A DNA stretch of 64,000 bases from Clostridiales bacterium (GCA_918262735.1 CAKJYJ010000003.1:84883-148882), one strand, 5' to 3'; numbered from the stretch's first letter, positions 10,802 through 57,754 are shown. Notes: a model not told the origin generated them from the sequence alone. Numbers and translations are program-made.

Positions 10802-11500
10802 ATGCCAGATGTGGTAAAGTTTATAATAATTATTGTTTTTGGATATTTGCTGGGCAATTTCAGTTCAGCAAAGTTTTTGTCACACATCGTTAAAGACGAC
10901 ATAACAAAACATGGAAGCGGTAATCCCGGAACAATGAATATGCTTAGAACGTTTGGTGTTAAGCTTGGCGCACTAACGCTTTTAATGGACGTTCTAAAAG
11001 GTGCAATTCCATCTCTTATTGGATATTTCATGTTTGGCGGTGGCGCAACAATACCAGCATATATTGGTCTTTTTGTTGGTGGTTTTTCTGCCGTTATTGG
11101 TCATATATTTCCTGTGTTCTATAAGTTTAAGGGTGGGAAGGGTGTTGCATGCATAATTGGTATGTTTGCCGTTGCAGAACCACTTTGGGCACTTGGTGTT
11201 CTTGTTATTTGTTTTGTATATTTGTTATTGTTCAAGTATGGCGTTTTGGCTTCGTTTATATTCATTACAATACTAACAATTATTGAGGGGTATAGGTTTA
11301 GAGGCAACCTTGTTATTTGCCTTTTGTTATTTGGTGTTTTTTGTATGACGTGGTTTATGCATAGACAAAACTTTTTCAGGCTTTTAATTGGTAAAGAAAA
11401 TAAGGTTAATTTGTTTAAGAAGAAAAGTAAAGAAACAAAGGTAAACAAGGCTGAAAAGAAAAAGCTTGCAAAAGAGAAAAAAATAAAGGAAATAGGTTAG
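10802..11500 (+). CDS. plsY: Glycerol-3-phosphate acyltransferase PlsY with a lysine-rich C-terminal extension
   Basis: GSGNPGTMN and HIFPVFYKFKGGKGVA motifs, multiple TM helices. Tail KKKSKETKVNKAEKKKLAKEKKIKEIG. Confidence 0.9.
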   Translation: MPDVVKFIIIIVFGYLLGNFSSAKFLSHIVKDDITKHGSGNPGTMNMLRTFGVKLGALTLLMDVLKGAIPSLIGYFMFGGGATIPAYIGLFVGGFSAVIGHIFPVFYKFKGGKGVACIIGMFAVAEPLWALGVLVICFVYLLLFKYGVLASFIFITILTIIEGYRFRGNLVICLLLFGVFCMTWFMHRQNFFRLLIGKENKVNLFKKKSKETKVNKAEKKKLAKEKKIKEIG

Positions 11501-13587
11501 TGAGATCTGTTGAATTACTTTCACCAGCAGGTGATTTTGAAGGGTTAAAAATGGCGGTGTTTGGAGGTGCAAACGCCGTTTATTTTGGTGCCAAAGGTTT
11601 TAATGCTAGGGCAAAAGCCAATAATTTCGGTGAAGATTTACCACGTGCTGTTGCATTTTGCCATATGTTTGGTGTTAAGGCATATTTAACGCTTAATACA
11701 ATTGTTGAGAATGATGAAATTAATGAGCTTATTGGCACGGCAAAATATGCACTAGAGTGTGGTATTGATGCGTTTATAGTTCAAGACTTTGGTGTTGTGA
11801 ACATATTAAAGAACTGTTTTTCAAATATTGAAATACACGCAAGTACACAAATGGCGGTTAATAACTATCTTGGTGCATTAAAATTAAAAGAGATGGGTAT
11901 TAAAAGAGTTGTTTTATCAAGGGAAACGTCTTTAGAAGACATAAAGTTAATTAAACAAAAAACAAATCTAGAAATTGAATATTTTGTTCAGGGTGCTTTG
12001 TGTGTTTGTTTTTCAGGCAATTGTTATTTGTCTTCTAGGCTGTTTGGTAAAAGTGGAAACAGAGGGGAATGTATGCAACCCTGCAGGCTTCCATACAAAG
12101 CATTTTTAAAAGGAAAGCAATTAGCAGATGGATATTTGCTTTCAGCAAAAGATATGAATATGTCTAAGCGATTAAAAGAGCTAATTGATGCGGGTGTTGA
12201 TAGCTTCAAAATTGAAGGAAGGCTCAGAAGACCGGCATATATTGCAGGGGTAACAAAAATATATAGGAAAATTATTGACAATAACTTTTTGGTTGCAGAT
12301 GAAGATACAACAGTTCTAAAAAAATGTTTTAATAGGGGGGATTTCACCGAAGGGTACTTTGGTGGTAACGGAAATATTATTGATAACAAAATTCAGGGGC
12401 ACAAAGGATTAAAAATAGGAATGGTCGTGGACTTTGTTGTTGGGAACAAGTTTAACATTGTTAAAATTAAGTCAAGCCACAATATTATGAGGGGTGATGT
12501 TCTCAAATTCATAAATAACGGAGTTGAAAATGCAACAATAACCGCTGTCGACATTAAAAATAGCAATGGAATATACACCATAACAACAACCAATAAGGTG
12601 GTAGTGGGTAGTGATGTCCATTTAATTTCAGATGTTTGTTTAGAGACGGAGTTAATGGGGCATATAAAAAAATTGCCAGTGAATTTTAGTTTATTGGCCA
12701 ACGTGGGCGAAAAACTTAAATTAGAATATGAGTTTAACGGCAAATCTGGAATAGTCTATGGTGAAGTTTGTCAAACTGCCAATACTCAACCATTAACAGA
12801 AAATGAAGCCAGAACACAGTTATCAAAAATGGGCGCTACAAACTTTTATCTAAACGATTTTAAGTTGCAAACAAATGGGGTTTTTGTTAGAAAACAAGAA
12901 TTAAACAGCCTTAGAAATATGGCAATAGAAGAAATTGAAAATTCCTTTATACATAAAGGAATTGTTGATGTTGATTATAGTTACATTAGTGAAGATTTAC
13001 CATATAGCAACACCAAAAACAACAATCTTACATATGAAATTGGAGAACTATATAACACAAGTCGGGATATTCTAATTGTTAGGCCTCAGAATTACAAAGA
13101 TTTCAACTATTCAAAAATAAGCCACAAAAACGCATTTTTATTTGTTCCATCATATTTAACGCATAAAGATATTGATATGATTAACGAGATTTTAGACAAT
13201 AATGAAAATCTGGGCGTGTATGCAGATAATATTTCGTATGTTGGTTACAAAAATAAAAGAATTATTCTTGGTGCAAAACTAAACATTAAGAATGTTTATG
13301 CAATAAAAGAACTAATTAACGATAGGGTTTTTGCAATTATGACATCTCCAGAATTAACAGAAGAAAGATATGACGAATTGTCAAAATTCTATTCTGTCCC
13401 TGTGCTGAAATCAAATTTTGATGGTTTTGACTTGATGACACTTGTTCATTGTCCAATAAAAATGATTTTTGGCAATAATTGTGCCAATTGCAAATACCAA
13501 GATGGCATAACGTACAAAATGGAAAACGGTAGAATACTAACGTTAAAGAGGTATAAAATTCACTCTTGTACATTTGTGCTAAGATAA
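11500..13587 (+). CDS. Peptidase U32 family protein (collagenase-like)
   Basis: The GTG start overlaps the plsY stop (TAGTG). U32 signature EYFVQGALCVCFSGNCYLSS. N-terminus ELLSPAG. Confidence 0.85.
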   Translation: MRSVELLSPAGDFEGLKMAVFGGANAVYFGAKGFNARAKANNFGEDLPRAVAFCHMFGVKAYLTLNTIVENDEINELIGTAKYALECGIDAFIVQDFGVVNILKNCFSNIEIHASTQMAVNNYLGALKLKEMGIKRVVLSRETSLEDIKLIKQKTNLEIEYFVQGALCVCFSGNCYLSSRLFGKSGNRGECMQPCRLPYKAFLKGKQLADGYLLSAKDMNMSKRLKELIDAGVDSFKIEGRLRRPAYIAGVTKIYRKIIDNNFLVADEDTTVLKKCFNRGDFTEGYFGGNGNIIDNKIQGHKGLKIGMVVDFVVGNKFNIVKIKSSHNIMRGDVLKFINNGVENATITAVDIKNSNGIYTITTTNKVVVGSDVHLISDVCLETELMGHIKKLPVNFSLLANVGEKLKLEYEFNGKSGIVYGEVCQTANTQPLTENEARTQLSKMGATNFYLNDFKLQTNGVFVRKQELNSLRNMAIEEIENSFIHKGIVDVDYSYISEDLPYSNTKNNNLTYEIGELYNTSRDILIVRPQNYKDFNYSKISHKNAFLFVPSYLTHKDIDMINEILDNNENLGVYADNISYVGYKNKRIILGAKLNIKNVYAIKELINDRVFAIMTSPELTEERYDELSKFYSVPVLKSNFDGFDLMTLVHCPIKMIFGNNCANCKYQDGITYKMENGRILTLKRYKIHSCTFVLR

Positions 13588-36279: not shown

Positions 36280-37437
36280 TTAACTATCATTTTTGGTTAA
36301 AAAAAGTGTTGCAATTCTTTTAATGGCATTTACAAACGTTTCACATTCTGTATATGTGTTGTAATAGCAAATTGAAACACGAACAACTCCTGTTTCAATA
36401 GTATTTAGTGCTTTATGCTTTAGACCTGCACAATGAAGTCCAGCACGAACACAAATTCCATATTTTTCTGACAGAATGTCGGCAACTTCTTGGGAGTCTG
36501 CCCCTTTTATATTAAAAGCAATAACGCCAAACATAACATTTTCTGGGCTGGTGTATGTTATAATATTTTCTATTTTATCAAGCTCAAAGAGTAAATATGT
36601 TGCTAGGTCATCAATTTTTTTATTGATTTTGTCAAAATTATTGGTTGTCCAACTAAACCCAGCACCAAGTGCTATTATATTTGGTGTTGAAAGCGTACCA
36701 CTTTCCAAACACTCGGGATAATCTTTTGGTTGATAAACATTTAATGAATCCGTGCCAGTTCCACCGTATTTTATTGGCTTTGGATTGGCTCGCACACTAA
36801 AAGCAAAAACTCCAACTCCTTGCAGAGAATAAAGTGCTTTATGTGGTGCAAGTGCAAGCATATCAATATGGTCTTTTTGCATGTCAATTTTAACGTGACC
36901 GGCACTTTGTGCACAATCAACCAAAAACAATATACATTTTTTAGCGCAAAGTTCACCAATTGAGTGTATGTCTGCCATGTCGCCATTAACGTTACTAACA
37001 TGATTAACCGCAATTAAATATGTGTTTTCTTTAATGTATGGCTCAATATCGTTTGCCGTTAATAGTTCTTGTTTCTGGGGATTAACAACAGTAACTTCAA
37101 CTAGGCCTTGCTTTTCAAGTTCAAAAATTGGTCTTACAAGTGAATTATGGTCGTTACACGAGCAAATAATATGTCCCCCTTTTAGTGCAGTACCTAAAAC
37201 GGCAATGTTAAGAGCTTCAGTACAACTTTGTGTAAATATAACATTTTCCGGTTTGTCACAATTAAGAAACCCACAGATTTTTTCTCTAACTTCATACACC
37301 TTTTCACCAGCAAGCATGCTTAAGCTATGGCCACTTCGCCCTGGGTTTGCTGTGTATTTTGATGTTGCAACCATAACGGCTTTAATAACCTCTTTAGGTT
37401 TAATATATGTGCTTGCAGAGTTATCTAGGTATATCAT
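36280..37437 (-). CDS. Cysteine desulfurase family protein (class V aminotransferase fold)
   Basis: PLP-lysine region LALAPHKALYSLQGVG. NifS/SufS-like N-terminus (IYLDNSASTYIKP) and C-terminal GLHCA. Confidence 0.85.
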   Translation of the reverse strand: MIYLDNSASTYIKPKEVIKAVMVATSKYTANPGRSGHSLSMLAGEKVYEVREKICGFLNCDKPENVIFTQSCTEALNIAVLGTALKGGHIICSCNDHNSLVRPIFELEKQGLVEVTVVNPQKQELLTANDIEPYIKENTYLIAVNHVSNVNGDMADIHSIGELCAKKCILFLVDCAQSAGHVKIDMQKDHIDMLALAPHKALYSLQGVGVFAFSVRANPKPIKYGGTGTDSLNVYQPKDYPECLESGTLSTPNIIALGAGFSWTTNNFDKINKKIDDLATYLLFELDKIENIITYTSPENVMFGVIAFNIKGADSQEVADILSEKYGICVRAGLHCAGLKHKALNTIETGVVRVSICYYNTYTECETFVNAIKRIATLFLTKNDS

Positions 37438-38178: not shown

Positions 38179-38207
38179 TTGACAATGCTAATATGTTGGT
38201 GTATAAT
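38179..38207 (+). promoter_or_regulatory. Consensus sigma-A promoter
   Basis: TTGACA (38179-38184), 17-nt spacer, TATAAT (38202-38207). The ORF-track TTG start at 38179 is the -35 hexamer itself. Confidence 0.55.
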
Positions 38208-38238
38208 CTCAAGGAAAACAATTTTTATAGAGGTGTAT

Positions 38239-41028
38239 ATGAAGAAGTTTTTAGTATATGTTGTTGTAATAGTAACATTGTTATTCTTGGGTTTCACTGT
38301 TTATTACCTAGCACAAAATGATGAAACAATTTCATTAACAATGGCAACAGATGAGTCTTATTACATGAATAAGGGCGATGTTTTTGAATTGCCAATTAAA
38401 TGGACAAAACCATCAAGAGGAACAACTTTAACTGTTTCTGGCGATAATAGTTCGGTTTTAAGCTATGACAAAGACACAAAAATGTTCACAGGTGTTGGTG
38501 GTGGTTTCACAACAGTAACAATAACCACTTCAAATCCACATTTTGGACCTTTTGTTCTTCAGGTTTACGTTGGGGATGGGGAACTTAACAGTCCATATGT
38601 ACTTTCAACTGCAAGTGATTTAGCAAGAATTGGAACAGATTCTTTATTCACAGACAGTAAGTATTATAGATTAATTAATGATATTGACTTATTAACATAT
38701 AATAATGGTGTTTGGTCACCACTCGCAGAGTTTAGTGGTCATTTAGATGGAAATGGGCACGCAATTCATCACTTAAAAGTTAACAGCACAGAAAATGGTG
38801 GCTTATTTGGAAAAGTAACACACAGTGGTTCTGTTGAAAATGTTAAACTTCTTAATGTTAACATAACGGGTGAGTTTACCAATGTTGGTGCTGTTTGTGG
38901 TGTTAATAATGGATTAATTGGTAAGGTTGAAGTAACCGGTGCAGTTAATAATGAAAAAACAAACAGCAACACTGGTTTACTTGTTGGTGCAAATGATTGG
39001 GATTCTTCCGCAGCATATATTAATATGTGTTCAGTAAGAGGCAGTATTACGGCTAAGGGTAATGCAGGCGGTCTTGCTGGTTACAACCATTCAAGCGTTA
39101 TTCTTAATTCAAGAGCTTTAATAACCGAATTAACAGCAAATGAAGCAAATATTTCACTTGGTGGTATTGTTGGAAAAAATGAGTCATTGTATGATAACGA
39201 AGAGTATTTTGCTTCAGCAATTGTTAAATGTTATTCGGTTATAGAAAGTACTCAAGGAAATGCAAACATTGGTGCGGTTGTAGGTAATAATGCAGAGAAC
39301 AATAATAGTAATGCATTATTCTACAACAAATATGAAGATATCTATTTTGCATGTGCAGACGAGGTTAATTTAACTGCTGTTGCAACAGGTGCCAACTTAA
39401 TTAATGCAACAGTTGCAGCACAATTACAATCGGTTACAAAAGATGCACTTTTAAGCAAAACAACTTATGCTAATTACAATTTTGAAACAGTATGGAACAA
39501 AATTGAAACAGAATATGCAAACCTCAACTATCTTGGAACATACGAAAATGTTTACATTAAAGGTATGAAAAAGGAAATCACATTACTAGATAAATCTCTT
39601 ATTGAATTCTTAGATACAATTAGGGGAACAACTAACAATTCTGTATTTATTGTTGATAGCGATAGGGTATATGACCTACAAGGAAGACATTGGGAATCTG
39701 TTGGAAAACAATTGGGAACACCAATGCTTGCAGGAATTATTGTTGAACCTGGTGTAAGTTGTGTTATTAAAAACTTTGTTCTAGATGACGACAACACAAG
39801 TTTCTTCGGATACATTTCTGGTAACACAAAAATAAACGGAATAACATTTGAAGATGTAACAGTTAATCATCTTGCAAATGAATTATCAAATTCAGCAGTT
39901 GTTGCAACGAACCTTTTAAATGGTGCAACACTTGAAGGAATCACAGTTAAAAACTTGGTTGAATATAAAACAAAGTCAACCAGCGTAGGCGTTATTTCAG
40001 CACAGAATAAAGGTAACATTATTAACTGTAATGTTGTTGCAGATTCTGTTAAATCTGTAATAATCAATCCAAAAGAGGCAGTTGTTAACTATGGAACAAT
40101 TGTTGGTTACAACGAAGGTACTATTTCTGGTTGTCGTGTTAATAACATTCAACTTGAAATTGATACATCAAGAATTGTTAAAGCAAACTTTAACATTGGT
40201 GGTGCAGTTGGAACAACAACAAAAAGTTTAACAAATGTTGGAGTTAATGGATTTAATTTAGATACAAATAACGAAGGTGTTATGTATGTTGGTGGCGTTG
40301 TTGGTTACACAACAAACGAGAAAATAACAATTGATAAATGCTATTCAAAAGCAAATATATTTGTAAATATGTATAACACAGATGCATTCGTTGGCGGTGT
40401 TGTTTCATATGTTTCTGCAAACACAGATGTTATTGGTTCATTATACACAGCCGGCACATTAAAAGCTGCCAACATTGGCGGTATAATTGCAGTAAATAAC
40501 GGAGCTTTGGCATCATCATATAGTGAAGGAACATTACGTGGTGTATATGTTGCTGGCTTGGTTGCAAGAAACTTTGGTAAGGTTGAAAACTGCTACACAT
40601 TAAGCACACTTCAAGGCGAAAATGGTTCAAGCGTTGTTTCTGGTCTTGTTGGTGTTCTTGCAAAAGACAGTGAAGTTGACAGATGCTTTAGTTCTGCAAC
40701 ATTTGCTGGAGAAGGAACCAAGTATGCTGAAACCGAAACTCCATTCAGATGGAATGGCTTAACAACAACGGTTAAGAGTTGGTTTGGTAGTGATGTATCT
40801 CATGGAACACTTCAAAGATGTATAATAATTAATTACGGTAAGGCAGAAGTTCAGGTTAACTCAATCTTCCAAGGAAAAGATGGTTGGATTGATGCCACAG
40901 AAGAAGATTGCAAGGGTAAAGATGACTATGCAGTATTCAGAGAAAAAGCAAGTTTTGGTAATTCTGTATGGAACTTCACAAACACTGGATATTACCCAAC
41001 ATTAATTAATGTTGCAACTGTTGACTAA
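38239..41028 (+). CDS. Large membrane-anchored surface protein with an Ig-like (Big_2-type) domain and GLUG-motif repeats
   Basis: N-terminal anchor MKKFLVYVVVIVTLLFLGF. Ig-like segment TLTVSGDNSSVLSYDKDT...TVTITTSN. Recurring GGLFG, GGLAG, GGIVG, IGGAVG, VGGVVGY and IGGIIA motifs about every 25-30 aa. Confidence 0.65.
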   Translation: MKKFLVYVVVIVTLLFLGFTVYYLAQNDETISLTMATDESYYMNKGDVFELPIKWTKPSRGTTLTVSGDNSSVLSYDKDTKMFTGVGGGFTTVTITTSNPHFGPFVLQVYVGDGELNSPYVLSTASDLARIGTDSLFTDSKYYRLINDIDLLTYNNGVWSPLAEFSGHLDGNGHAIHHLKVNSTENGGLFGKVTHSGSVENVKLLNVNITGEFTNVGAVCGVNNGLIGKVEVTGAVNNEKTNSNTGLLVGANDWDSSAAYINMCSVRGSITAKGNAGGLAGYNHSSVILNSRALITELTANEANISLGGIVGKNESLYDNEEYFASAIVKCYSVIESTQGNANIGAVVGNNAENNNSNALFYNKYEDIYFACADEVNLTAVATGANLINATVAAQLQSVTKDALLSKTTYANYNFETVWNKIETEYANLNYLGTYENVYIKGMKKEITLLDKSLIEFLDTIRGTTNNSVFIVDSDRVYDLQGRHWESVGKQLGTPMLAGIIVEPGVSCVIKNFVLDDDNTSFFGYISGNTKINGITFEDVTVNHLANELSNSAVVATNLLNGATLEGITVKNLVEYKTKSTSVGVISAQNKGNIINCNVVADSVKSVIINPKEAVVNYGTIVGYNEGTISGCRVNNIQLEIDTSRIVKANFNIGGAVGTTTKSLTNVGVNGFNLDTNNEGVMYVGGVVGYTTNEKITIDKCYSKANIFVNMYNTDAFVGGVVSYVSANTDVIGSLYTAGTLKAANIGGIIAVNNGALASSYSEGTLRGVYVAGLVARNFGKVENCYTLSTLQGENGSSVVSGLVGVLAKDSEVDRCFSSATFAGEGTKYAETETPFRWNGLTTTVKSWFGSDVSHGTLQRCIIINYGKAEVQVNSIFQGKDGWIDATEEDCKGKDDYAVFREKASFGNSVWNFTNTGYYPTLINVATVD

Positions 41029-42695: not shown

Positions 42696-42842
42696 TAAAA
42701 ATTATCAAAAAAAACAATAATTTTCTAAAAAAAATAGTATTTTTTGCAAATTTTACTAAAAAATAATAAAAAATATAGAATTAGGTATTGTAATTTATTT
42801 AATTATGTGTTAGAATAATTGCGATATTCAAATAAGGAGAAG

Positions 42843-44129
42843 ATGCATATGATTTTAGATGTTATGATTTTAGATGTATTAAAGTACATTCTTGTGGTTC
42901 TTGGAATTGTTGCTGTTGGAGCATTCATTGTTTGGGGTCTTGTTAGTTTAATTCTATTAATTATTGAGCCTCATGGAAATGGCGAACAAAACGCAAACAC
43001 AAACAACAACTATTACGATAACAGCCAAATAACATATCAAAATTATGAACCACAAAAACTTATTGCTAATGACTACACAAAGCAAGAACCAGTAGTTGGG
43101 CAAAAAGATGTTCAAGATGTTGACCTTGACAAAGCAAGAGCAGAAGAGGAAGCTTTAGGTCAAGGCACTAATTTTGATGAGCTTGAACAAGAAGAAGACC
43201 TATTCATCAAAGAAAAACAAAGAAAAATTGAGGAAAGACTTGCAGAAAAAGCAGCAAAAGAAGATGACCAAGATGAAATCAATATTGATGATATCTTTGT
43301 TGATGATGAAGAAGTAAAAGAAGAACCTGCTGAGGCTGAGGAAGCAGAAGTCAATGAAGAAGATGACGACATTGAAGATTTAATCAACAAAATTCTTGAT
43401 GAAGACGAAGAAACCGATAATGCTGAAGAAGCAAACGAAGAAGAAGTTGTTGAAGAACAAGAAGAAGTAAAAGAAGAACCTGCAGAAATTGAAGAAGATG
43501 AAGCAGATAGAAGAATTAAAGAACTTGAAGAAGCACTTGCTCGTCAAAAAGAAGAATACGAAAACAGATTAAAAGAAGCAGAAACAGAAAAAGATAATGA
43601 AGCAAACGAAAGAATTGCAGAACTTGAAAGACAACTTGCCGAAAAAGAAAATGCCGAAACTGTAACTGCTCCAGCACTTTCATTGGAAGAATACGAAGCA
43701 AGACTTGAAGTTTTAAGAGAAAGATTAAAAGCAAATGAAAAAGAATTAAAAGTTGTTAAAAAAGACTTTATTCCTTTATATAAAATACATAAAACCCTCG
43801 AACGTGATAATGTTAAACTTCGTAGAAAAGAAGCACTTGTTGCAAAACAAAAAGTTGTTCTTTATGGTGTTAACAATTATGTTGATATTGATGAAGAAAA
43901 AGCAAAGAAGCTTGCAGAAGATTTGGATTTACTAGAAGGATTAAGATTATCTGTTCAACATTGCGAAGAAGTAATGAAGGCTAATGAAGAAAGATATCCA
44001 ATTCTTGAAACAGCATACAAAACTCTTGTTGCAACAAATGAAGATATTAAAGCTGATATAAAAGAATGTACAGACAAAATTGAAGAAATTAAAGCAAACA
44101 ATGATACTGATAATACAGATGCAGAATAA
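42843..44129 (+). CDS. Membrane-anchored, highly acidic coiled-coil protein, hypothetical
   Basis: AAGGAG lies before the ATG at 42843. One TM helix, then Glu/Asp-rich low-complexity sequence and heptad-like regions. Confidence 0.5.
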   Translation: MHMILDVMILDVLKYILVVLGIVAVGAFIVWGLVSLILLIIEPHGNGEQNANTNNNYYDNSQITYQNYEPQKLIANDYTKQEPVVGQKDVQDVDLDKARAEEEALGQGTNFDELEQEEDLFIKEKQRKIEERLAEKAAKEDDQDEINIDDIFVDDEEVKEEPAEAEEAEVNEEDDDIEDLINKILDEDEETDNAEEANEEEVVEEQEEVKEEPAEIEEDEADRRIKELEEALARQKEEYENRLKEAETEKDNEANERIAELERQLAEKENAETVTAPALSLEEYEARLEVLRERLKANEKELKVVKKDFIPLYKIHKTLERDNVKLRRKEALVAKQKVVLYGVNNYVDIDEEKAKKLAEDLDLLEGLRLSVQHCEEVMKANEERYPILETAYKTLVATNEDIKADIKECTDKIEEIKANNDTDNTDAE

Positions 44130-44168: not shown

Positions 44169-44318
44169 ATAAAATTTTATGCTTCAAAACCTTTTTAATG
44201 ATGTTACAAAAAAAAATTATAAATATTTGAAATCATTTTTGATAACATTAAAAGTGTGTTATAATATTAAAGACAGTAATATTTGCAGTGTTAAAAATTT
44301 GTTTTGTGAGAGTTGCTT

Positions 44319-45266
44319 ATGAACAAAAACGATAATTACAGCGAGTTTAACAACGCATCTTTTGATGAGTTTAATTCATGCTGCAATGAAAACAATAATG
44401 TTTTGTTAACAAATGACCACACACACACAAATAACGAAACAAAAGAGAGGGGTGATATATTTGTTAAAAAGAAAAACACTCATCTTCAGTTTCTTATTCA
44501 TAGTCTGGTTTTTGTTACTGCTGTAGCATTGGTTATTGAACCTGCGTTTAATATTTCGATTGTAGGTTACATATTTAACCAAACTCAGCCAGCAACTCAG
44601 CAGGCATCGGTGTCATATTCAAGTGAGGCAACAACTGTTTCATATAAAGATATAACATATACCATTAAAATAGATAACGATGATGACAATCTTAAAGAAT
44701 ATTCACTAATACTTGTTAAACAGGGGTGTGACAATGAGACATACATTGATTCACTTTCTGCAAATGATTTAGGTTTTCATAGTGTTTCGGTAACAAATAA
44801 AACAACTACACACACGTTTAACACATATATAACGCCTAGTGGTTGTTTCAATTTATTACCAGATTCCAATTATGTGTTGCTGGTAATAAAAGATGGCGAA
44901 ATTGTTGATAGATGCCATGAGCATACATATGAGTTTACATACATCAACAGCCTTGCCTTTACACCATCTTCAGGTTCTGACTACATCAATATAACAGTTG
45001 ACTATAACGATTTTGATTTTGATTATCTATACATAGAGATAACGGCTGATGATGGAACATTTTTAACATATATGCACCCACAGAAATCATCTATGTATCC
45101 GGCTTTTGAAAGATCATCACTTGGCCTGTCATCGCTAGTAAATATTAATATTTACATGTTACCCTTATATGGGGAAGTGTTTGAAACAGATAAAAAAATG
45201 GTATTCAGTGGGAATACATATTATTTAATTTATACGCAGGAAAGCGTTAACCTATCTGGTATATAA
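44319..45266 (+). CDS. Hypothetical single-pass membrane protein with an extracytoplasmic beta-rich domain
   Basis: I prefer the ATG at 44319 to the TTG at 44313. One TM helix (LIHSLVFVTAVALVIEPAF). No family recognised. Confidence 0.4.
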   Translation: MNKNDNYSEFNNASFDEFNSCCNENNNVLLTNDHTHTNNETKERGDIFVKKKNTHLQFLIHSLVFVTAVALVIEPAFNISIVGYIFNQTQPATQQASVSYSSEATTVSYKDITYTIKIDNDDDNLKEYSLILVKQGCDNETYIDSLSANDLGFHSVSVTNKTTTHTFNTYITPSGCFNLLPDSNYVLLVIKDGEIVDRCHEHTYEFTYINSLAFTPSSGSDYINITVDYNDFDFDYLYIEITADDGTFLTYMHPQKSSMYPAFERSSLGLSSLVNINIYMLPLYGEVFETDKKMVFSGNTYYLIYTQESVNLSGI

Positions 45267-47474: not shown

Positions 47475-47829
47475 GGGGGCGACATGGCTTCGACAGGGAA
47501 TAGCAACAAAAATAAAAGCACGTGGTGGTTTGACCAGTGCCACCTAAAAAAAGGTCAAGCGAATAAACGCAAACAATAGAAATAGCCTTGCTATGGCTGC
47601 TTAATAGTTAAGCAAATAGCAAGTTTAGAGGAATGTGTTGGGTGCTCTAAACTTTTATTTACCGACACAAATTTTAATTCAATTCCTTGAGGATTAATCT
47701 TATAAATTAGGATTGGGTTTTAATTGTTTGTTTATGAACAATAAAGCCTGAAATTAATCATAAACTAAACGTGTAGAAAGATTTTATGGCATTTCTTGGA
47801 CGAGGGTTCAATTCCCTCCGCTTCCACCA
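47475..47829 (+). ncRNA. ssrA: tmRNA (SsrA)
   Basis: The 5' GGGGGCGACATGGCTTCGACAGGG pairs with the 3' CGCTTCC-ACCA, including a G3-U pair. T-arm GAGGGTTCAATTCCCTC. Candidate tag ORF GCA AAC AAT AGA AAT AGC CTT GCT ATG GCT GCT TAA TAG (47569-47607) encodes ANNRNSLAMAA. Confidence 0.92.
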
Positions 47830-47858
47830 GAAAAAAACATCGACCTTATGGCAGGTTT
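47810..47858 (+). repeat. Direct repeat copy 1 (49 nt): the last 20 nt of ssrA plus 29 nt downstream
   Basis: aattccctccgcttccaccagaaaaaaacatcgaccttatggcaggttt. Confidence 0.85.
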
Positions 47859-47898
47859 ACTATCGTAAACCGTAAGCCCGTAACGGTCGTGTTTTTTT
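47836..47898 (+). terminator. Long imperfect hairpin plus T7, the probable ssrA terminator
   Basis: acatcgacc...ggtttac-tatc-gtaaacc...ggtcgtgt followed by ttttttt. Confidence 0.55.
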
Positions 47899-48094
47899 CT
47901 TACCGACCAAACGCACTCACTGTTGTTCGTGGTCGGTACTCTCGTGCGAAGAAAAATTCTGCGAGTCAAAATTCAGCGGTATTATACAATTTACAATAAA
48001 TCAACTGAGGGAATTGAACGCGTGCGTTAAAAAAAGTTGCCGGTGGCAAGTTTTTTAGCACCAGGCATGAAAGGTGAACAGCGTTCACCGGAGT
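47859..48094 (+). mobile_element. 236-nt hairpin-rich segment between the two tmRNA-3'-end repeats; possible remnant of an ssrA-targeting integrative element
   Basis: Bounded by the 49/48-nt direct repeats. Contains an exact 13-nt inverted copy of the T-loop region (48007-48019 is the reverse complement of 47806-47818) and several 5-9 bp stem hairpins. No credible ORF. Confidence 0.3.
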
Positions 48095-48142
48095 AATTCC
48101 CTCCGCTTACACCAGAAAAAACATCGACCTTATGGCAGGTTT
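48095..48142 (+). repeat. Direct repeat copy 2 (48 nt), a degenerate tmRNA 3' end
   Basis: aattccctccgcttAcaccagaaaaaacatcgaccttatggcaggttt. It differs from copy 1 by a C-to-A change that breaks an acceptor-stem pair and by one fewer A. Confidence 0.85.
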
Positions 48143-48165
48143 GGTATAAATATTAAAACTTTTTA

Positions 48166-48757: not shown

Positions 48758-48788
48758 AAATTCTCATTTTTGTATGAGAATTTTTTTA
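48758..48788 (+). terminator. Rho-independent terminator
   Basis: aaattctcat-ttttgt-atgagaattt hairpin followed by a T-run. Confidence 0.75.
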
Positions 48789-48888
48789 TTAATAATCATC
48801 CCGTAAAATTAATTGCCCTAATAATTTGTTAAAAAAAATTTTTTATGTTATTATAAAAGCAATTGATAAAAAGTAAGGGGAGCCATTT

Positions 48889-50046
48889 ATGGAAAACACA
48901 TTAATTGATTCTAAACTGGAATTATTTTTTGAGGGTGAATTAAATTCATATAATGCAGACAATATTTGGAAAGATGTTGAAAGCACATTATTGGACAAAG
49001 AATTCACAACACTTATATTAAATTTTGCTAAATTGAATTATATATCTAGTGCGGGGCTAAGGATTGTTCTAAAACTTAAGCAAGCATATAATGATGTTCA
49101 CATAACCGAAGCAAATATGGATGTTTATGATATTTTGTCAATGACAGGTTTTACTAACATTATGGATGTTAAAAAAGCATATAAAAGAATGTACGTTGCT
49201 GGCGCAGAAATTGTTGGAGAGGGTTATTTTTCAACCGTTTACAGAATAGATAAAGACACAATAATAAAAGTTTTTAACAGAACGAGCGATGAAAACCAGA
49301 TTCAAAGAGAATTAAATTTAGCAAAAAAAGCATTTGTTCTTGGAATTCCAACCGCAATATCCTTTGATATTGTTAAGGTTGATAATAAGCTTGGCGTTAG
49401 ATTTGAAATGCTTGATTGTGACTCATTGAAAAACACATACCTAAAAAACCCAGACAAATTTGATGAATTGACCGATAAATATGTTGGTCTACTAAAAAAA
49501 ATAAATACAACAGAGTGTGATGACCCGTCTCAACTTAGGAATATAAAAGAGTTCTATTTTGAGAAATTAGAGTTAATTAAAGAATTCTTAGAAACCGAAG
49601 ATTACAATAAGCTTTATGCACTGTTGCAGACAATTCCAGAAAGAAAAACATTTGTTCATGGAGATTGTCACTTTAAGAACATTATGGTTCAAAAAGATGA
49701 ACTTTTGTTAATTGATATGGACACTCTTTCTGTTGGGCATCCAATTTTTGAACTTGCTGCAATATACGCTCCATATATTGCATTTGATGAAGATGACCCT
49801 GGTAATTGTGAAAGATTTTTGGGAGTGTCTTCTGATTTTACAAAAAAATTATTTAATCAAATAATTATCAAATATTTTGGTAGGGAAGACCAATCTATAT
49901 TTGATAAAATAAAACTTGTTTCATATATTCATATGATGTGGTGGAATAGAACAAACGAGCCACAAAATGAAAAAAGATTACATGGTTGCAGGGAAAGATT
50001 GTTAAAACTTCTTAAAAAATATGATGATTTAAAATTGGAGATTTAA
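48889..50046 (+). CDS. Fusion of a STAS (anti-sigma-factor-antagonist-like) domain with an aminoglycoside-phosphotransferase/protein-kinase-like domain
   Basis: The first ~100 aa carry the STAS core LNFAKLNYISSAGLRIVLKL (compare DSSGLG of SpoIIAA/RsbV). The remainder has a Gly-rich loop GEGYFSTVYR, a Lys in IIKVF, the catalytic loop FVHGDCHFKNIMV, and LIDMDTL. Confidence 0.65.
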   Translation: MENTLIDSKLELFFEGELNSYNADNIWKDVESTLLDKEFTTLILNFAKLNYISSAGLRIVLKLKQAYNDVHITEANMDVYDILSMTGFTNIMDVKKAYKRMYVAGAEIVGEGYFSTVYRIDKDTIIKVFNRTSDENQIQRELNLAKKAFVLGIPTAISFDIVKVDNKLGVRFEMLDCDSLKNTYLKNPDKFDELTDKYVGLLKKINTTECDDPSQLRNIKEFYFEKLELIKEFLETEDYNKLYALLQTIPERKTFVHGDCHFKNIMVQKDELLLIDMDTLSVGHPIFELAAIYAPYIAFDEDDPGNCERFLGVSSDFTKKLFNQIIIKYFGREDQSIFDKIKLVSYIHMMWWNRTNEPQNEKRLHGCRERLLKLLKKYDDLKLEI

Positions 50047-51893
50047 TGGCAAATAATAACAACGAATACTACGAAATTTATCTAAAAAATGAATATGATG
50101 CAAATAAACAAATGTCATATGCTTGTGCATTTGGTGGTTTTTTGTTGTTTATAATGTGGATAGGAGTTTTGTTTGGGCTTTTTGTAACAACTCAAAGAAT
50201 GCATCTAATACTATCCATAACAATGCCAATAGCAATTATTGTTTTATTTTCACCGCTTTTTTATATAAAAACTGAAAGAATAAAAAAAACAAGATTTAAA
50301 AATTTTGTTTTGTATTCATTTATGTTTGTTGTTGCTTTTATAAACGTGTTACTTCCAAAACATGGAATAATTGGTTGGGCGCTTTGTATTGTTTTAACAA
50401 ATCATTATTACAATCCAAAGTTATGCAAAAAAATATACTTTTTTACGATAATTTCAATGCTGATTTGCATCTATCTTGGAATGTTTTTTGGAGAATATGA
50501 CCCAGGACTTCTCGGAAATGGTGTTGTTGTTGATGGAAACATTGTTGAACCAGACACCCCTTATGATAGGTATATTATGATGAAAGACCTTATGAGTATT
50601 GGTATAAACAGATATCTTAGGGTGTTCATGTTCTACTATTTATCGAGGTTGGCATTTATAAGCATTTTGTTCTTCATATCTAACTCGCTCAATAAACGAA
50701 CATACACACTATTTATGGATGAAATAAAAGTTAATAGTAAGCAAGAGAGGTTAAACACAGAATTAAACGTTGCAAGGAATATTCAAATGTCAACACTGCC
50801 AGAAGATTTTGTTGCAACAGAAGATGTTGAAATATTAGCTGATTTGAAACCAGCGAAAGAGGTTGGTGGCGATTTTTACTATTATTTTAATGTTGATGAA
50901 AGTCATATAGCATATTTGGTAGGTGATGTTTCTGGCAAGGGTATTCCATCAGCAATGTTTATGATGCGTGCAATAACAAGTTTTAGAGATTGTATCAAAA
51001 TTGACAAAACACCAAGTCAAATATTAAAAGAAGTTAACAAACTTCTCCATGTTGGTAATGACGATTCAATGTTTATTACATGTTTTTTTGCAATTTTGAA
51101 CACAAAAAATGGTAATGTTATATATTCAAATGCGGGGCACACTCCACCAATTGTTGGTAAAAACTCGTGTTATTCTTATCTTAAATGTAATCCTGGGTTT
51201 TTGCTTGGTTGCACTGATGATTTGCCGGTTATTGATGAAACAGTAAGACTGAATAAAAATGACTCAATGATATTATATACCGATGGAATAACGGAAGCAA
51301 AAAATGATGGTGGAGAACTATATGGTGGAAAACGTTTACTGGATTTTTATAATTCAAAAGAGTTTTCGTGCCTACTTGAACAGCATTTAGATTTAATGGA
51401 TAGCATCGAAAAGTTTTCGAACGGCACAGAGCAAAGTGATGATATAACACTACTTACTCTCAAATACCAAGGCAATAAGATGTATATTAAAGAAAAAACC
51501 CTCAATAGCACAAAGGAGAGTGTGCAAAAATCTATTGAACTTGTTAATGAATATTGTGATGTTATAAAAGCAGATGATAAGTTGAAAAATGATTTTTCAA
51601 TAGTTATTGATGAATTGGTATCAAATATTGTTAAATATTCATACGACAACGCAATTGGAACAATATATTTAAGATTATTGTATGACTATGATACCAGAGA
51701 TGTTGTTTTCACAATAATAGACAAGGGCAAGGAATTCAATCCAACTGTCAATGTTGGTAAGGAACTCAATACAGATGTTAATAAAAATAAGGTGGGCGGT
51801 CTTGGTATATTAATTGTTAAAAATATAATGGACAGTGTTGTTTACGATAGGAAAAACGGCAAAAATATACTGACCTTGAAAAAACACATATAA
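50046..51893 (+). CDS. Polytopic membrane protein with a PP2C/SpoIIE phosphatase domain and a C-terminal RsbW-like GHKL serine-kinase domain
   Basis: About 6 N-terminal TM helices. PAKEVGGDFYYYF, GDVSGKGIPSA, YTDGITEA and SDDITLL (SpoIIE-type PP2C). ELVSNIVKYS, IIDKGKEFNP and GGLGILIVKNIM (HATPase). The start overlaps the upstream stop (TAATG). Confidence 0.75.
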   Translation: MANNNNEYYEIYLKNEYDANKQMSYACAFGGFLLFIMWIGVLFGLFVTTQRMHLILSITMPIAIIVLFSPLFYIKTERIKKTRFKNFVLYSFMFVVAFINVLLPKHGIIGWALCIVLTNHYYNPKLCKKIYFFTIISMLICIYLGMFFGEYDPGLLGNGVVVDGNIVEPDTPYDRYIMMKDLMSIGINRYLRVFMFYYLSRLAFISILFFISNSLNKRTYTLFMDEIKVNSKQERLNTELNVARNIQMSTLPEDFVATEDVEILADLKPAKEVGGDFYYYFNVDESHIAYLVGDVSGKGIPSAMFMMRAITSFRDCIKIDKTPSQILKEVNKLLHVGNDDSMFITCFFAILNTKNGNVIYSNAGHTPPIVGKNSCYSYLKCNPGFLLGCTDDLPVIDETVRLNKNDSMILYTDGITEAKNDGGELYGGKRLLDFYNSKEFSCLLEQHLDLMDSIEKFSNGTEQSDDITLLTLKYQGNKMYIKEKTLNSTKESVQKSIELVNEYCDVIKADDKLKNDFSIVIDELVSNIVKYSYDNAIGTIYLRLLYDYDTRDVVFTIIDKGKEFNPTVNVGKELNTDVNKNKVGGLGILIVKNIMDSVVYDRKNGKNILTLKKHI

Positions 51894-52010
51894 TTTTTAC
51901 AACAATGGTATAAATTAAAATAGCAAATTTGAAACATATTATGTTTTTTCCTTGCTATTTTTTTTATTTTTGTGTAGAATATATGCGTATTTTTTTCAAA
52001 GGAGATAAAA

Positions 52011-56695: not shown

Positions 56696-57754
56696 GTGAG
56701 AGATAAAGTAGAGCAAGAAGTTAAAAAAATGCTAGAAATTGCAACAAAAAAAGGTTCTATCAATGAAGAGGATATATTTTATAGACTTCTAAAATATGAA
56801 GCATCAAAAGATGAAATTGAAGAAGTTGTTAAATATATGGAGAGTAACGGAATTAAAGTTATTCAAACAAAAGAGCCAGATATTTCAAAAGAGGATTTTG
56901 CAGAACTTGTTGCAAGTGTTAATGTTGATGATCCAGTTAAGATGTATCTAAAAGATATTGGCAGATCCCAACTTTTAACAGGTGAGGAAGAGGTTGAACT
57001 AGCAAGAAGAGGAAGAGAGGGCGACCAGTATGCCCTAACAAGACTATCTGAATCTAACCTAAGGTTAGTTGTAAGCATTGCAAAAAGATATGCAGGAAGA
57101 ACCAATATGCAATTTTTGGATTTAATTCAAGAAGGTAATATTGGATTAATAAAAGCTGTTGAAAAATTTGATCCAAATAAAGGTTTTAGGTTTTCAACAT
57201 ATGCAACCTGGTGGATTCGTCAATCAATAACAAGAGCAATGGCAGACCAAGCAAGAACAATTAGAATTCCTGTTCATATGGTTGAAACAATTCATAAATT
57301 AACACGTGCAAAAAGGCAACTATTGCAAGAGTTGGGTAGAGATCCAACATCAGAAGAATTAGCAAATGCATTGGAGATGCCAGAAGATAAAGTTGCTGAA
57401 ATTTTAAGAATTGCACAAGATCCAATTAGTTTGGAAAATCCTGTTGGTGAAGAAGATGATTCAAAAATATCGGATTTTATTGAAGATGAAACAATTAAAT
57501 CTCCAACAGAAGTTGCATCACAAAACTTGCTTAGAGAGCAACTTTTATGCGTTATTGAAACTCTAACGCCAAGGGAACAAAAAGTTATAAGATTAAGATA
57601 TGGTTTAGATGACTCACACCCAAGAACCCTTGAGGAAGTTGGTAGGGAGTTTAATGTAACTCGTGAAAGAATACGTCAAATTGAAGCAAAAGCACTTAGA
57701 AAATTAAGAAACCCAACAAGAAGTAAAAAGCTTCTTGGTTTTATGGAAGATTAG
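56696..57754 (+). CDS. sigA: Primary RNA polymerase sigma factor (SigA/RpoD)
   Basis: GTG start. Regions 1.2-4.2 including [16 protein letters not shown] and [15 protein letters not shown]. dnaG-sigA synteny. Confidence 0.96.

Follow-up and report, generated by a model that had tools for sequence, protein, structure and literature searches.

A predicted two-gene serine phospho-switch with an APH-like kinase fused to its STAS domain in a Clostridiales bacterium

Textbooks present partner-switching modules as regulators of sigma factors. What, then, does such a module control when no sigma gene is linked to it? The question is raised by two genes in a 64,000-nucleotide stretch of DNA from a Clostridiales bacterium (GCA_918262735.1 CAKJYJ010000003.1:84883-148882, one strand), called here the window. 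Gene 1 encodes a STAS domain fused to a kinase-like domain of the aminoglycoside phosphotransferase (APH) type, and gene 2 encodes a membrane domain followed by a SpoIIE-type PP2C phosphatase and an RsbW-like serine kinase (Table 1). An initial annotation, made from the sequence, had read the pair as an RsbV/RsbW/RsbU-type partner switch whose output is the fused kinase. We consider it probable that the module is a self-contained, sigma-independent serine phospho-switch built from the RsbU/RsbV/RsbW toolkit, with the fused enzyme as its direct output. The earlier reading is supported at the level of architecture; that Ser54 of gene 1 gates the fused kinase is what we infer from it.

The N-terminal part of gene 1 matched Pfam STAS (PF01740) at residues 11-96 (8.7e-10) and NCBIfam TIGR00377 at 7.5e-12. 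All Pfam domain matches of both genes lay above the curated cut-offs. The STAS-APH family profile, when compared with the PDB, recovered the SpoIIAA structures 1TH8 and 1AUZ at 3e-08. The phosphorylatable-serine context that had been noticed in this domain, ISSAGL, starts at residue 52, and HMMER aligned Ser54 to Ser58 of SpoIIAA, the phospho-acceptor. This serine was invariant in 47/47 divergent STAS-APH homologues, and the motif YISSAGLR was found in all of the stand-alone STAS proteins encoded near such homologues (40/40).

The same chain matched Pfam APH (PF01636) at residues 109-294 (1.1e-12; 48.7 bits against a cut-off of 23.2), which bears out the fusion, and all the motifs quoted for it were present (GEGYFSTVY at residue 110, IIKVF at 125, HGDCHFKN at 257, IDMD at 275). 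The closest named family for the APH part is TIGR02172 (100.8 bits, E = 1e-28, model positions 8-194 of 226), but the score falls short of the curated NCBIfam threshold of 228.2 bits, so that gene 1 does not belong to this family by that measure. Conservation was assessed in an alignment of 47 STAS-APH proteins that share 32-61% identity. Ten columns were invariant, among them S54, G56, H257, D259, N264 and D276, so that the catalytic residues were retained and not lost on alignment; the ATP-binding K127 and E141 as well as G110 and G112 of the Gly-rich loop were conserved in at least 90% of the sequences. The APH-like domain is predicted to be catalytically competent.

The AlphaFold2 model of gene 1 (mean pLDDT 91.8, pTM 0.79) placed this domain in the expected fold class. 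The best Foldseek matches were APH(3')-Ia, APH(2'')-IIa, capreomycin phosphotransferase, choline/ethanolamine kinase and maltokinase, with E of about 1e-9 and probability 1.00; the likeness is remote, with 11-17% identity and a TM-score of about 0.5 on target length. Sequence and profile searches of the PDB with gene 1 returned STAS structures only, the kinase domain being without a match. The C-terminal part of gene 1 is thus modelled as a small-molecule-kinase-type fold that lacks a close characterised relative. It shares with the APH/choline-kinase-like kinases (PF01636; TIGR02172, the 'Fb_sc' paralogous family) the bilobal fold, the Gly-rich loop, the Lys/Glu pair, the HxDxxxxN loop and the metal-binding Asp, but it differs from them in its low identity to the solved structures, none of which is a close characterised member. 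A search of the literature found no N-terminal STAS fusion in any characterised enzyme of the APH family.

That aminoglycoside and capreomycin phosphotransferases head these matches could suggest a regulated antibiotic or xenobiotic resistance kinase, in which the membrane domain of gene 2 senses the drug and the switch activates an APH-type enzyme against it. Such a role would be suited by the GNAT acetyltransferase gene that immediately precedes the pair in the window and that adjoins the pair in another locus (L087) as well. However, the GNAT gene has its own terminator, the structural likeness is as remote as described, and the NCBIfam model for APH(6) gave gene 1 only 20.7 bits against a cut-off of 325. 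Members of the family are moreover chromosomal, occur widely in anaerobic gut Bacillota and are well conserved there, and their recurrent neighbours, described below, are alarmone-type and other phosphohydrolases rather than resistance genes. We therefore regard a resistance kinase as very improbable.

For gene 2, Pfam, the hydropathy scan and the AlphaFold2 model (mean pLDDT 84.7) agreed on the composition that had been proposed, namely about six transmembrane helices, a SpoIIE-type PP2C phosphatase and an RsbW-like kinase. The model places helices at residues 2-42, 50-73, 84-102, 108-121, 124-148 and from 189 onward, with an outside loop at about 149-188. Invariant residues of the membrane domain include N100, P104, H120, Y122, G149, E150 and D152, and motifs such as TNHYYNPK and GEYDP are conserved. 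No Pfam family and, with Foldseek, no PDB fold matched this domain. A divergent form of 5TMR-LYT, a sensor that relatives carry, was considered and rejected, the hhalign probability being 0.3%. No REC domain matched gene 2 either, and its input is the six-helix domain, whose last helix is modelled as running through the linker into the phosphatase.

Conservation extended to the catalytic parts of gene 2. The PP2C metal-binding residues D276, which lies just N-terminal to the Pfam SpoIIE envelope, D294, D413, D465 and D466 were invariant in 120 homologues, and in at least 119 of these the N-box residues E523 and N527, the G1 residue D559 and the G2 motif GGLG of the kinase were invariant as well. 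The kinase domain matched the NCBIfam models for RsbW (4.7e-08) and SpoIIAB (1e-05), and Foldseek superposed it on SpoIIAB (1TID_A) with a TM-score of 0.82 on target length. The best structural match of gene 2 was the RsbU and RsbW domains of Rv1364c (3KE6, E = 7e-18), followed by RssB, SiaA, RsbX and SpoIIE.

The architecture is not confined to the window. Homologues of gene 1 with the same architecture number more than 6,000 in a 90%-clustered database, the closest being 64-69% identical. They come mostly from metagenome-assembled genomes of uncultured 'Bacilli bacterium' and are labelled only as 'phosphotransferase', 'anti-sigma factor antagonist' or 'TIGR02172 family' (the JGI uses TIGR02172 for some). 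Among 50%-identity representatives, 2,615 clusters matched gene 1 at E<=1e-3 and 567 at E<=1e-30, and nearly all of the top 150 covered both STAS and APH. At least 600 stretches of species-representative genomes matched STAS-APH, the carriers being rumen and gut Bacilli, Erysipelotrichaceae, Clostridia, Oscillospiraceae and Lachnospiraceae, with Butyrivibrio sp. AC2005 (L077) as a cultured carrier. Gene 2 has more than 5,000 homologues, at about 47-53% identity.

Per-domain hidden Markov models (HMMs) were run against all open reading frames (ORFs) of 85 loci, and four arrangements were found. In arrangement (a), that of the window, STAS-APH is followed by the membrane-PP2C-HATPase protein; in (b) this pair is preceded by a stand-alone STAS protein of 97 residues; in (c), found in six species-representative loci, a STAS gene and a PP2C gene precede a STAS-APH-HATPase triple fusion, one of which was confirmed with Pfam; and in (d) every component is a separate gene. 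Linkage was counted in the 53 species-level loci that had at least 3 kb of flank on both sides. Within 3 kb of STAS-APH, an RsbW-like HATPase was encoded in 41 of them, a PP2C in 37 and a stand-alone STAS in 28.

Where genes 1 and 2 are adjacent, as in types (a) and (b), the junction measured 1-3 nt in 21/23 loci, and the genes flanking the pair varied from locus to locus. A reverse look-up from two gene 2 homologues again found STAS-APH directly upstream, in yet other surroundings. Because the pair is kept in both directions of the look-up while the flanking genes change, genes 1 and 2 appear from these comparisons to behave as a unit, and the co-occurrence of STAS-APH with PP2C and HATPase genes was confirmed by this survey. 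Other clades have a PP2C-HATPase partner of about 940 residues with an N-terminal 5TMR-LYT membrane sensor (L041:9445-12315, L061:4605-7412), to which HAMP is added in L061. These different sensors on the partner phosphatases indicate that modular inputs would feed a common output module.

Several further relatives were recorded in the survey. A 1004-residue protein (P0196, L088:274-3288) was rejected as a natural four-domain fusion; it is a gene-calling artefact that reads through an in-frame TAG at 1423-1425, directly followed by ATG, and consists of two ORFs as in the window. A second STAS-APH paralogue (L001:4726-5850, 374 residues, with a weak HopBF1_kinase match) accompanies a window-type pair in its genome and is directly followed by a Fic-domain gene (L001:5920-6891). 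Near the STAS-APH module of L075, a MatE (MATE efflux) transporter carries a C-terminal RsbW-like HATPase_c_2 domain (11135-12886), and proteins related to it cluster in L038, L072 and L080. Longer STAS-APH relatives (P0262, P0374, P0384, P0320, P0336 and P0305) are single metagenomic gene calls in which read-through is possible, and unverified fusion partners of STAS-APH are HD-CE, a Na+/H+ exchanger, GH3, PHP, a PolyA_pol/CCA-type nucleotidyltransferase head and a YezG-like immunity domain.

The initial annotation had stated that no sigma factor is nearby. In the window itself this needs qualification, since rpoD lies 4.8 kb downstream of the module (56696..57754), directly 3' of dnaG. That position, right after dnaG, is typical of the housekeeping sigma gene, and rpoD was not linked to the STAS-APH module in any related locus. 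The other part of the statement stood, in that no sigma gene was linked to the module across the 85 loci. A single-sequence HMM made from the RpoD of the window, whose sensitivity for extracytoplasmic function (ECF) sigma factors is unproven, recovered RpoD itself (E = 1.7e-179) and, even at E<=10, no other ORF of the window and none of the 85 loci, which span many genera. In a supplementary scan, 199 neighbour proteins of 120-330 residues encoded within 3 kb of the modules were each compared with Pfam. No sigma-70 family was among the recurrent families of the first 150 proteins, single-member families not being listed, and an isolated single sigma neighbour in this batch is possible. With the last 49 proteins, to which RpoD had been added as a control, each sigma-70 region was matched once, by the control. 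Thus no sigma factor was found to stand consistently beside the orthologues.

These searches bear on the alternative that the module is a canonical sigma switch acting on a sigma factor from another part of the genome. In that case gene 2 would sequester an alternative sigma factor with its RsbW-like domain, gene 1 would be the antagonist, and the APH-like domain would be an extra input that, for example, senses ATP or a metabolite, rather than the output. The resemblance of the HATPase_c_2 domain to RsbW and SpoIIAB is in keeping with this, as is the fact that the closest structure, Rv1364c, is a general-stress-response phosphatase fused to an anti-sigma-factor domain (eLife, PMC12143880), and only 64 kb of the genome is visible. 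However, in addition to the lack of linkage just described, which extends to the sole sigma gene of the window, the kinase catalytic residues of gene 1 are invariant, as would not be required of a pure sensor or scaffold, and in some species the HATPase is itself part of a fusion with STAS-APH, which suggests that STAS-APH is its main partner. We consider a sigma switch acting at a distance to be unlikely.

In the sigma-independent phospho-switch that we favour, the six-helix domain of gene 2 would sense a membrane or extracellular cue and would most likely bias the phosphatase by way of the continuous helix of the linker, much as happens in RsbU-type phosphatases. Such helical-linker control has been shown for RsbU and proposed as a general principle of PPM phosphatases, whose N-terminal sensors are diverse (PMC12143880). 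The RsbW-like kinase of gene 2 would oppose the PP2C of the same protein, both together would determine whether Ser54 of the gene 1 STAS domain carries a phosphate, and the phospho-state of STAS would decide the activity of the fused APH-like kinase. This gating could be allosteric, within gene 1, or the membrane-bound RsbW-like HATPase could hold the unphosphorylated STAS domain. By analogy with the two systems SypA and All4160, compared below, the unphosphorylated form may be the active one. Who phosphorylates whom, which phospho-state is active and what the substrate is are the steps of this scheme that we infer.

One parallel is SypE of Vibrio fischeri, a protein that combines a kinase and a PP2C and controls the STAS effector SypA (PMC10120452). 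In both systems one polypeptide with an RsbW-like kinase and a PP2C would act on the conserved STAS serine, and the STAS protein would be the downstream effector, with no sigma factor as immediate target (PMC10120452, PMC8256260); for the window, the fusion to an enzyme and the absence of a sigma factor argue for this role. The two differ in that SypE is cytoplasmic, with a central REC domain and the order kinase-REC-PP2C, whereas gene 2 has a six-helix membrane input and its PP2C precedes its kinase. SypA is a single-domain STAS protein, whereas in gene 1 a covalent fusion joins the STAS domain to an enzyme of the kinase fold. HsbR/HsbA of Pseudomonas and CrsR/CrsA of Shewanella are related to SypE/SypA.

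A second parallel is All4160 of Anabaena PCC 7120, a STAS-glycosyltransferase whose switching depends on the PP2C HenR and the kinase Alr3423 (bioRxiv 10.64898/2026.04.08.717354). As in gene 1, an N-terminal STAS domain is fused to an enzyme that is the direct, sigma-independent output (bioRxiv 10.64898/2026.04.08.717354), and the action of a PP2C and RsbW-type kinases on the STAS serine, by which phosphorylation switches the enzyme (also PMC8256260), is what we propose here. The output of All4160 is, however, a glycosyltransferase for heterocyst polysaccharide and not an APH-like kinase, and its phosphatase and kinases are separate proteins found by genetics and two-hybrid assays, whereas here they form one membrane protein that is translationally coupled to its presumed target.

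With Rv1364c of Mycobacterium tuberculosis (3KE6), gene 2 shares the order of a PP2C and then an RsbW-like kinase in one chain, at 23% identity over about 370 aligned columns. Rv1364c differs in having an N-terminal PAS sensor and a C-terminal anti-sigma-factor domain where gene 2 has a membrane sensor. It also carries its own C-terminal STAS domain and acts on sigma F, whereas gene 2 has no STAS domain and its presumed substrate is the separate STAS-kinase fusion. The Bacillus systems RsbU/RsbV/RsbW and SpoIIE/SpoIIAA/SpoIIAB use the same three protein families with a homologous phospho-serine position. They differ from the module, which has no linked cognate sigma factor, in which kinase and phosphatase are fused and membrane-anchored, in which the antagonist carries an enzyme, and which in its two-gene form has no alternative partner. 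This last difference affects the term 'partner switch' used in the initial annotation: the STAS, kinase and PP2C parts are all there, but because the two-gene form encodes no second partner, 'phospho-switch' is more accurate.

The neighbours of STAS-APH relatives give a lead to the substrate class. The commonest neighbour outside the switch components was an HD_4 protein of about 190 residues, encoded directly upstream in 21 divergent loci, most of which are labelled Clostridia, Oscillospiraceae or Lachnospiraceae. Since it matched positions 1-122 of the RelA/SpoT model TIGR00691 (1.5e-26), we assign it by sequence as a small-alarmone-hydrolase (SAH)-like enzyme. The HDxxED catalytic motif was invariant in 21/21 of these proteins, and the stop codon of the SAH-like gene lay -17 to +21 nt from the start of STAS-APH in 18/21 loci, an overlap of the two genes being frequent. 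A PHP-domain phosphoesterase gene stood beside STAS-APH relatives in five loci, about 15 nt 3' of the triple fusions of L043, L058, L065 and L072 and after an unfused STAS-APH in L080. PAP2 and a NUDIX NADH pyrophosphatase were each found once in such a position. A literature search for small alarmone hydrolases together with STAS found nothing relevant.

Because the nearest folds are all small-molecule kinases and phosphohydrolase genes recur beside relatives, the substrate of the APH-like domain is most likely a small-molecule hydroxyl, possibly nucleotide-like, so that the predicted output would be small-molecule phosphorylation rather than transcription. A more specific idea, to which we give only a slight chance, is that the APH-like domain is the synthetase of a phosphorylated nucleotide-type messenger, and that in sister clades the phosphate is removed by the translationally coupled SAH-like enzyme (or by PHP, NUDIX or PAP2). 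The acceptor might be, for example, the ribose hydroxyl of a nucleotide, a cofactor or an RNA 3' end. If this were true, the module would be a second-messenger or alarmone system driven by a membrane sensor and gated by a partner switch, widespread in gut and rumen Bacillota, and would represent a new wiring of STAS switches to nucleotide signalling.

The tight spacing of the SAH-like gene and STAS-APH would also fit a conflict, toxin-antitoxin or defence module, in which the APH-like kinase is a growth-arresting toxin restrained by the switch and, elsewhere, by the SAH. SAHs are reported to accompany toxic alarmone synthetases in many cases and to give self-resistance (PMC9765508), a role that would suit such a module. 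Weak matches to TCAD9, the fusion to a YezG-like immunity domain and the paralogue beside a Fic gene point the same way. On the other side, no PADLOC family matched gene 1, gene 2 or the SAH, the module of the window has neither an SAH nor another antitoxin candidate, and its composition gives no sign of mobility. Defence and toxin modules are expected to be patchily distributed, whereas this gene is conserved across many species, at the identities given above for gene 1 in its closest clade and for gene 2. A toxin or defence function thus appears highly unlikely.

Several observations weigh against the phospho-switch with a small-molecule kinase output. The STAS-HATPase and STAS-PP2C contacts are predicted from homology, and a sigma factor elsewhere in the genome, of which 64 kb is visible, could possibly act in trans. 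In 9/53 loci neither a PP2C nor a HATPase was encoded within 8 kb of STAS-APH, which suggests that the kinase need not be linked to a switch or that its regulators act in trans. The window encodes a single STAS domain within its 64 kb, and many relatives add a stand-alone STAS protein; in these, true partner competition for the kinase is plausible, and their logic may be a competition of two STAS partners, of which the window lacks the second. Weak matches of gene 1 to the atypical protein kinases RIO1, Bud32, SrkA, CotS and HopBF1 make a protein substrate possible. Finally, the association with SAH and PHP genes was seen neither in the window nor in its own clade (0/18 loci), and for this reason the link to phosphohydrolases is a lead to the substrate class and not evidence on the locus of the window.

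The concept has precedent in SypE/SypA, All4160 and Rv1364c, and cases in which a partner-switching module has an enzyme as its direct target have begun to appear only recently (SypA; All4160, 2026 preprint). New here are the APH-like output kinase and its membrane PP2C-kinase partner, whose sensor domain is itself new, together with the size of the family and its connection with alarmone-type hydrolases. The module joins the RsbU/RsbV/RsbW toolkit to a kinase with intact catalytic residues. It is not isolated, with hundreds of 50%-identity clusters, yet no paper describing the STAS-APH fusion or TIGR02172 was found. It offers a compact two-gene system for studying the control of a fused enzyme by a STAS phospho-switch; the SAH gene of sister clades is a concrete, testable lead to the substrate, and the cultured carrier Butyrivibrio sp. 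AC2005 makes experiments feasible.

Table 1. Positions of the module, of its predicted domains and signals, and of genes in related loci (window coordinates unless a locus is named)
Feature	Position	Strand	Basis or remark
Gene 1, STAS-APH fusion	48889..50046	+	ORF, 385 residues
STAS domain, anti-sigma-antagonist type	48889..49188	+	residues 1-100
Ser54 codon, predicted phospho-acceptor in YISSAGLR	49048..49050	+	HMMER alignment
APH/choline-kinase-like kinase domain	49201..50043	+	residues 105-385
Catalytic loop H257-G-D259-C-H-F-K-N264 (HxDxxxxN)	49657..49680	+	H257, D259, N264 invariant
Asp276 codon in IDMD, metal-binding, equivalent of the DFG Asp	49714..49716	+	invariant
TAATG stop/start overlap	50044..50048	+	gene 1 TAA 50044-50046, gene 2 ATG 50046-50048
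Gene 2, membrane domain + PP2C + RsbW-like Ser kinase	50046..51893	+	ORF, 615 residues
Six-helix membrane domain	50046..50681	+	residues 1-212; hydropathy scan and AlphaFold2
Continuous helix, sixth transmembrane helix through linker into PP2C	50610..50795	+	residues 189-250; AlphaFold2 secondary structure
SpoIIE/RsbU-type PP2C phosphatase domain	50898..51467	+	residues 285-474; Pfam SpoIIE 6e-44
HATPase_c_2 (RsbW/SpoIIAB-like) Ser kinase domain	51507..51884	+	residues 488-613; Pfam 8.7e-19
Shine-Dalgarno AAGGGGAG of gene 1	48875..48882	+	strong; 6 nt 5' of ATG; read from sequence
Sigma-70-like promoter candidate, 5' of gene 1	48826..48854	+	consensus scan
Terminator-like hairpin and U-run after GNAT gene	48758..48790	+	RNA fold -9.5 kcal/mol, z = -4.05 vs shuffles
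Terminator-like hairpin and U-run after gene 2	51917..51970	+	RNA fold -13.1 kcal/mol, z = -4.68
STAS-APH-HATPase_c_2 triple fusions, about 530 residues	L043:7941-9560, L049:8004-9590, L058:7992-9563, L065:1103-2698, L072:7989-9581, L083:8294-9883		
SAH-like genes	L055:7427-8017, L061:7417-7986, L079:7423-8001, L081:3460-4035		and 17 further loci

The coupled pair that had been described was found exactly as described, and from its position the TAATG overlap is predicted to couple the translation of gene 2 to that of gene 1. As terminator-like hairpins with U-runs flank both sides (the hairpins themselves at 48758-48783 and 51917-51961), the two genes appear to form a transcription unit of their own; for the hairpin 3' of gene 2, 0/200 shuffles folded equally well. 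The candidate promoter of gene 1 consists of TTGTTA, a 17-nt spacer and TATTAT with an extended -10 TG (9/12 consensus matches), but promoter-like sites in the region are no commoner than chance, so it is weak evidence.

The surroundings had been taken for an accessory spot with an att-like scar at ssrA. The scar is real. A complete transfer-messenger RNA (tmRNA) gene lies at 47475-47829 (Rfam, 154 bits), and about 54 nt of its 3' end and flank (47810-47863) are duplicated at 48095-48147 with 94-96% identity, the copies being 285 bp apart and upstream of the GNAT gene; the repeat looks like a remnant of integration and excision at ssrA. A genomic island was nevertheless rejected, since the repeats enclose only 285 bp and the module lies beyond them with a GC of 0.30, equal to that of its neighbours. 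The module thus bears no island signature, and 'accessory' is weakly supported. A small hairpin lies between the two copies (48037-48049).

Among the other ORFs of the window, a second one of 385 residues (36280..37437, minus strand) was rejected as a paralogue of gene 1, being a class-V aminotransferase. The ORFs at 38179-41028 (949 residues) and 44313-45266 (317 residues) matched no Pfam family at the thresholds used, and an ORF of 436 residues (42819-44129) has an extremely high content of Glu, Asp and Lys.

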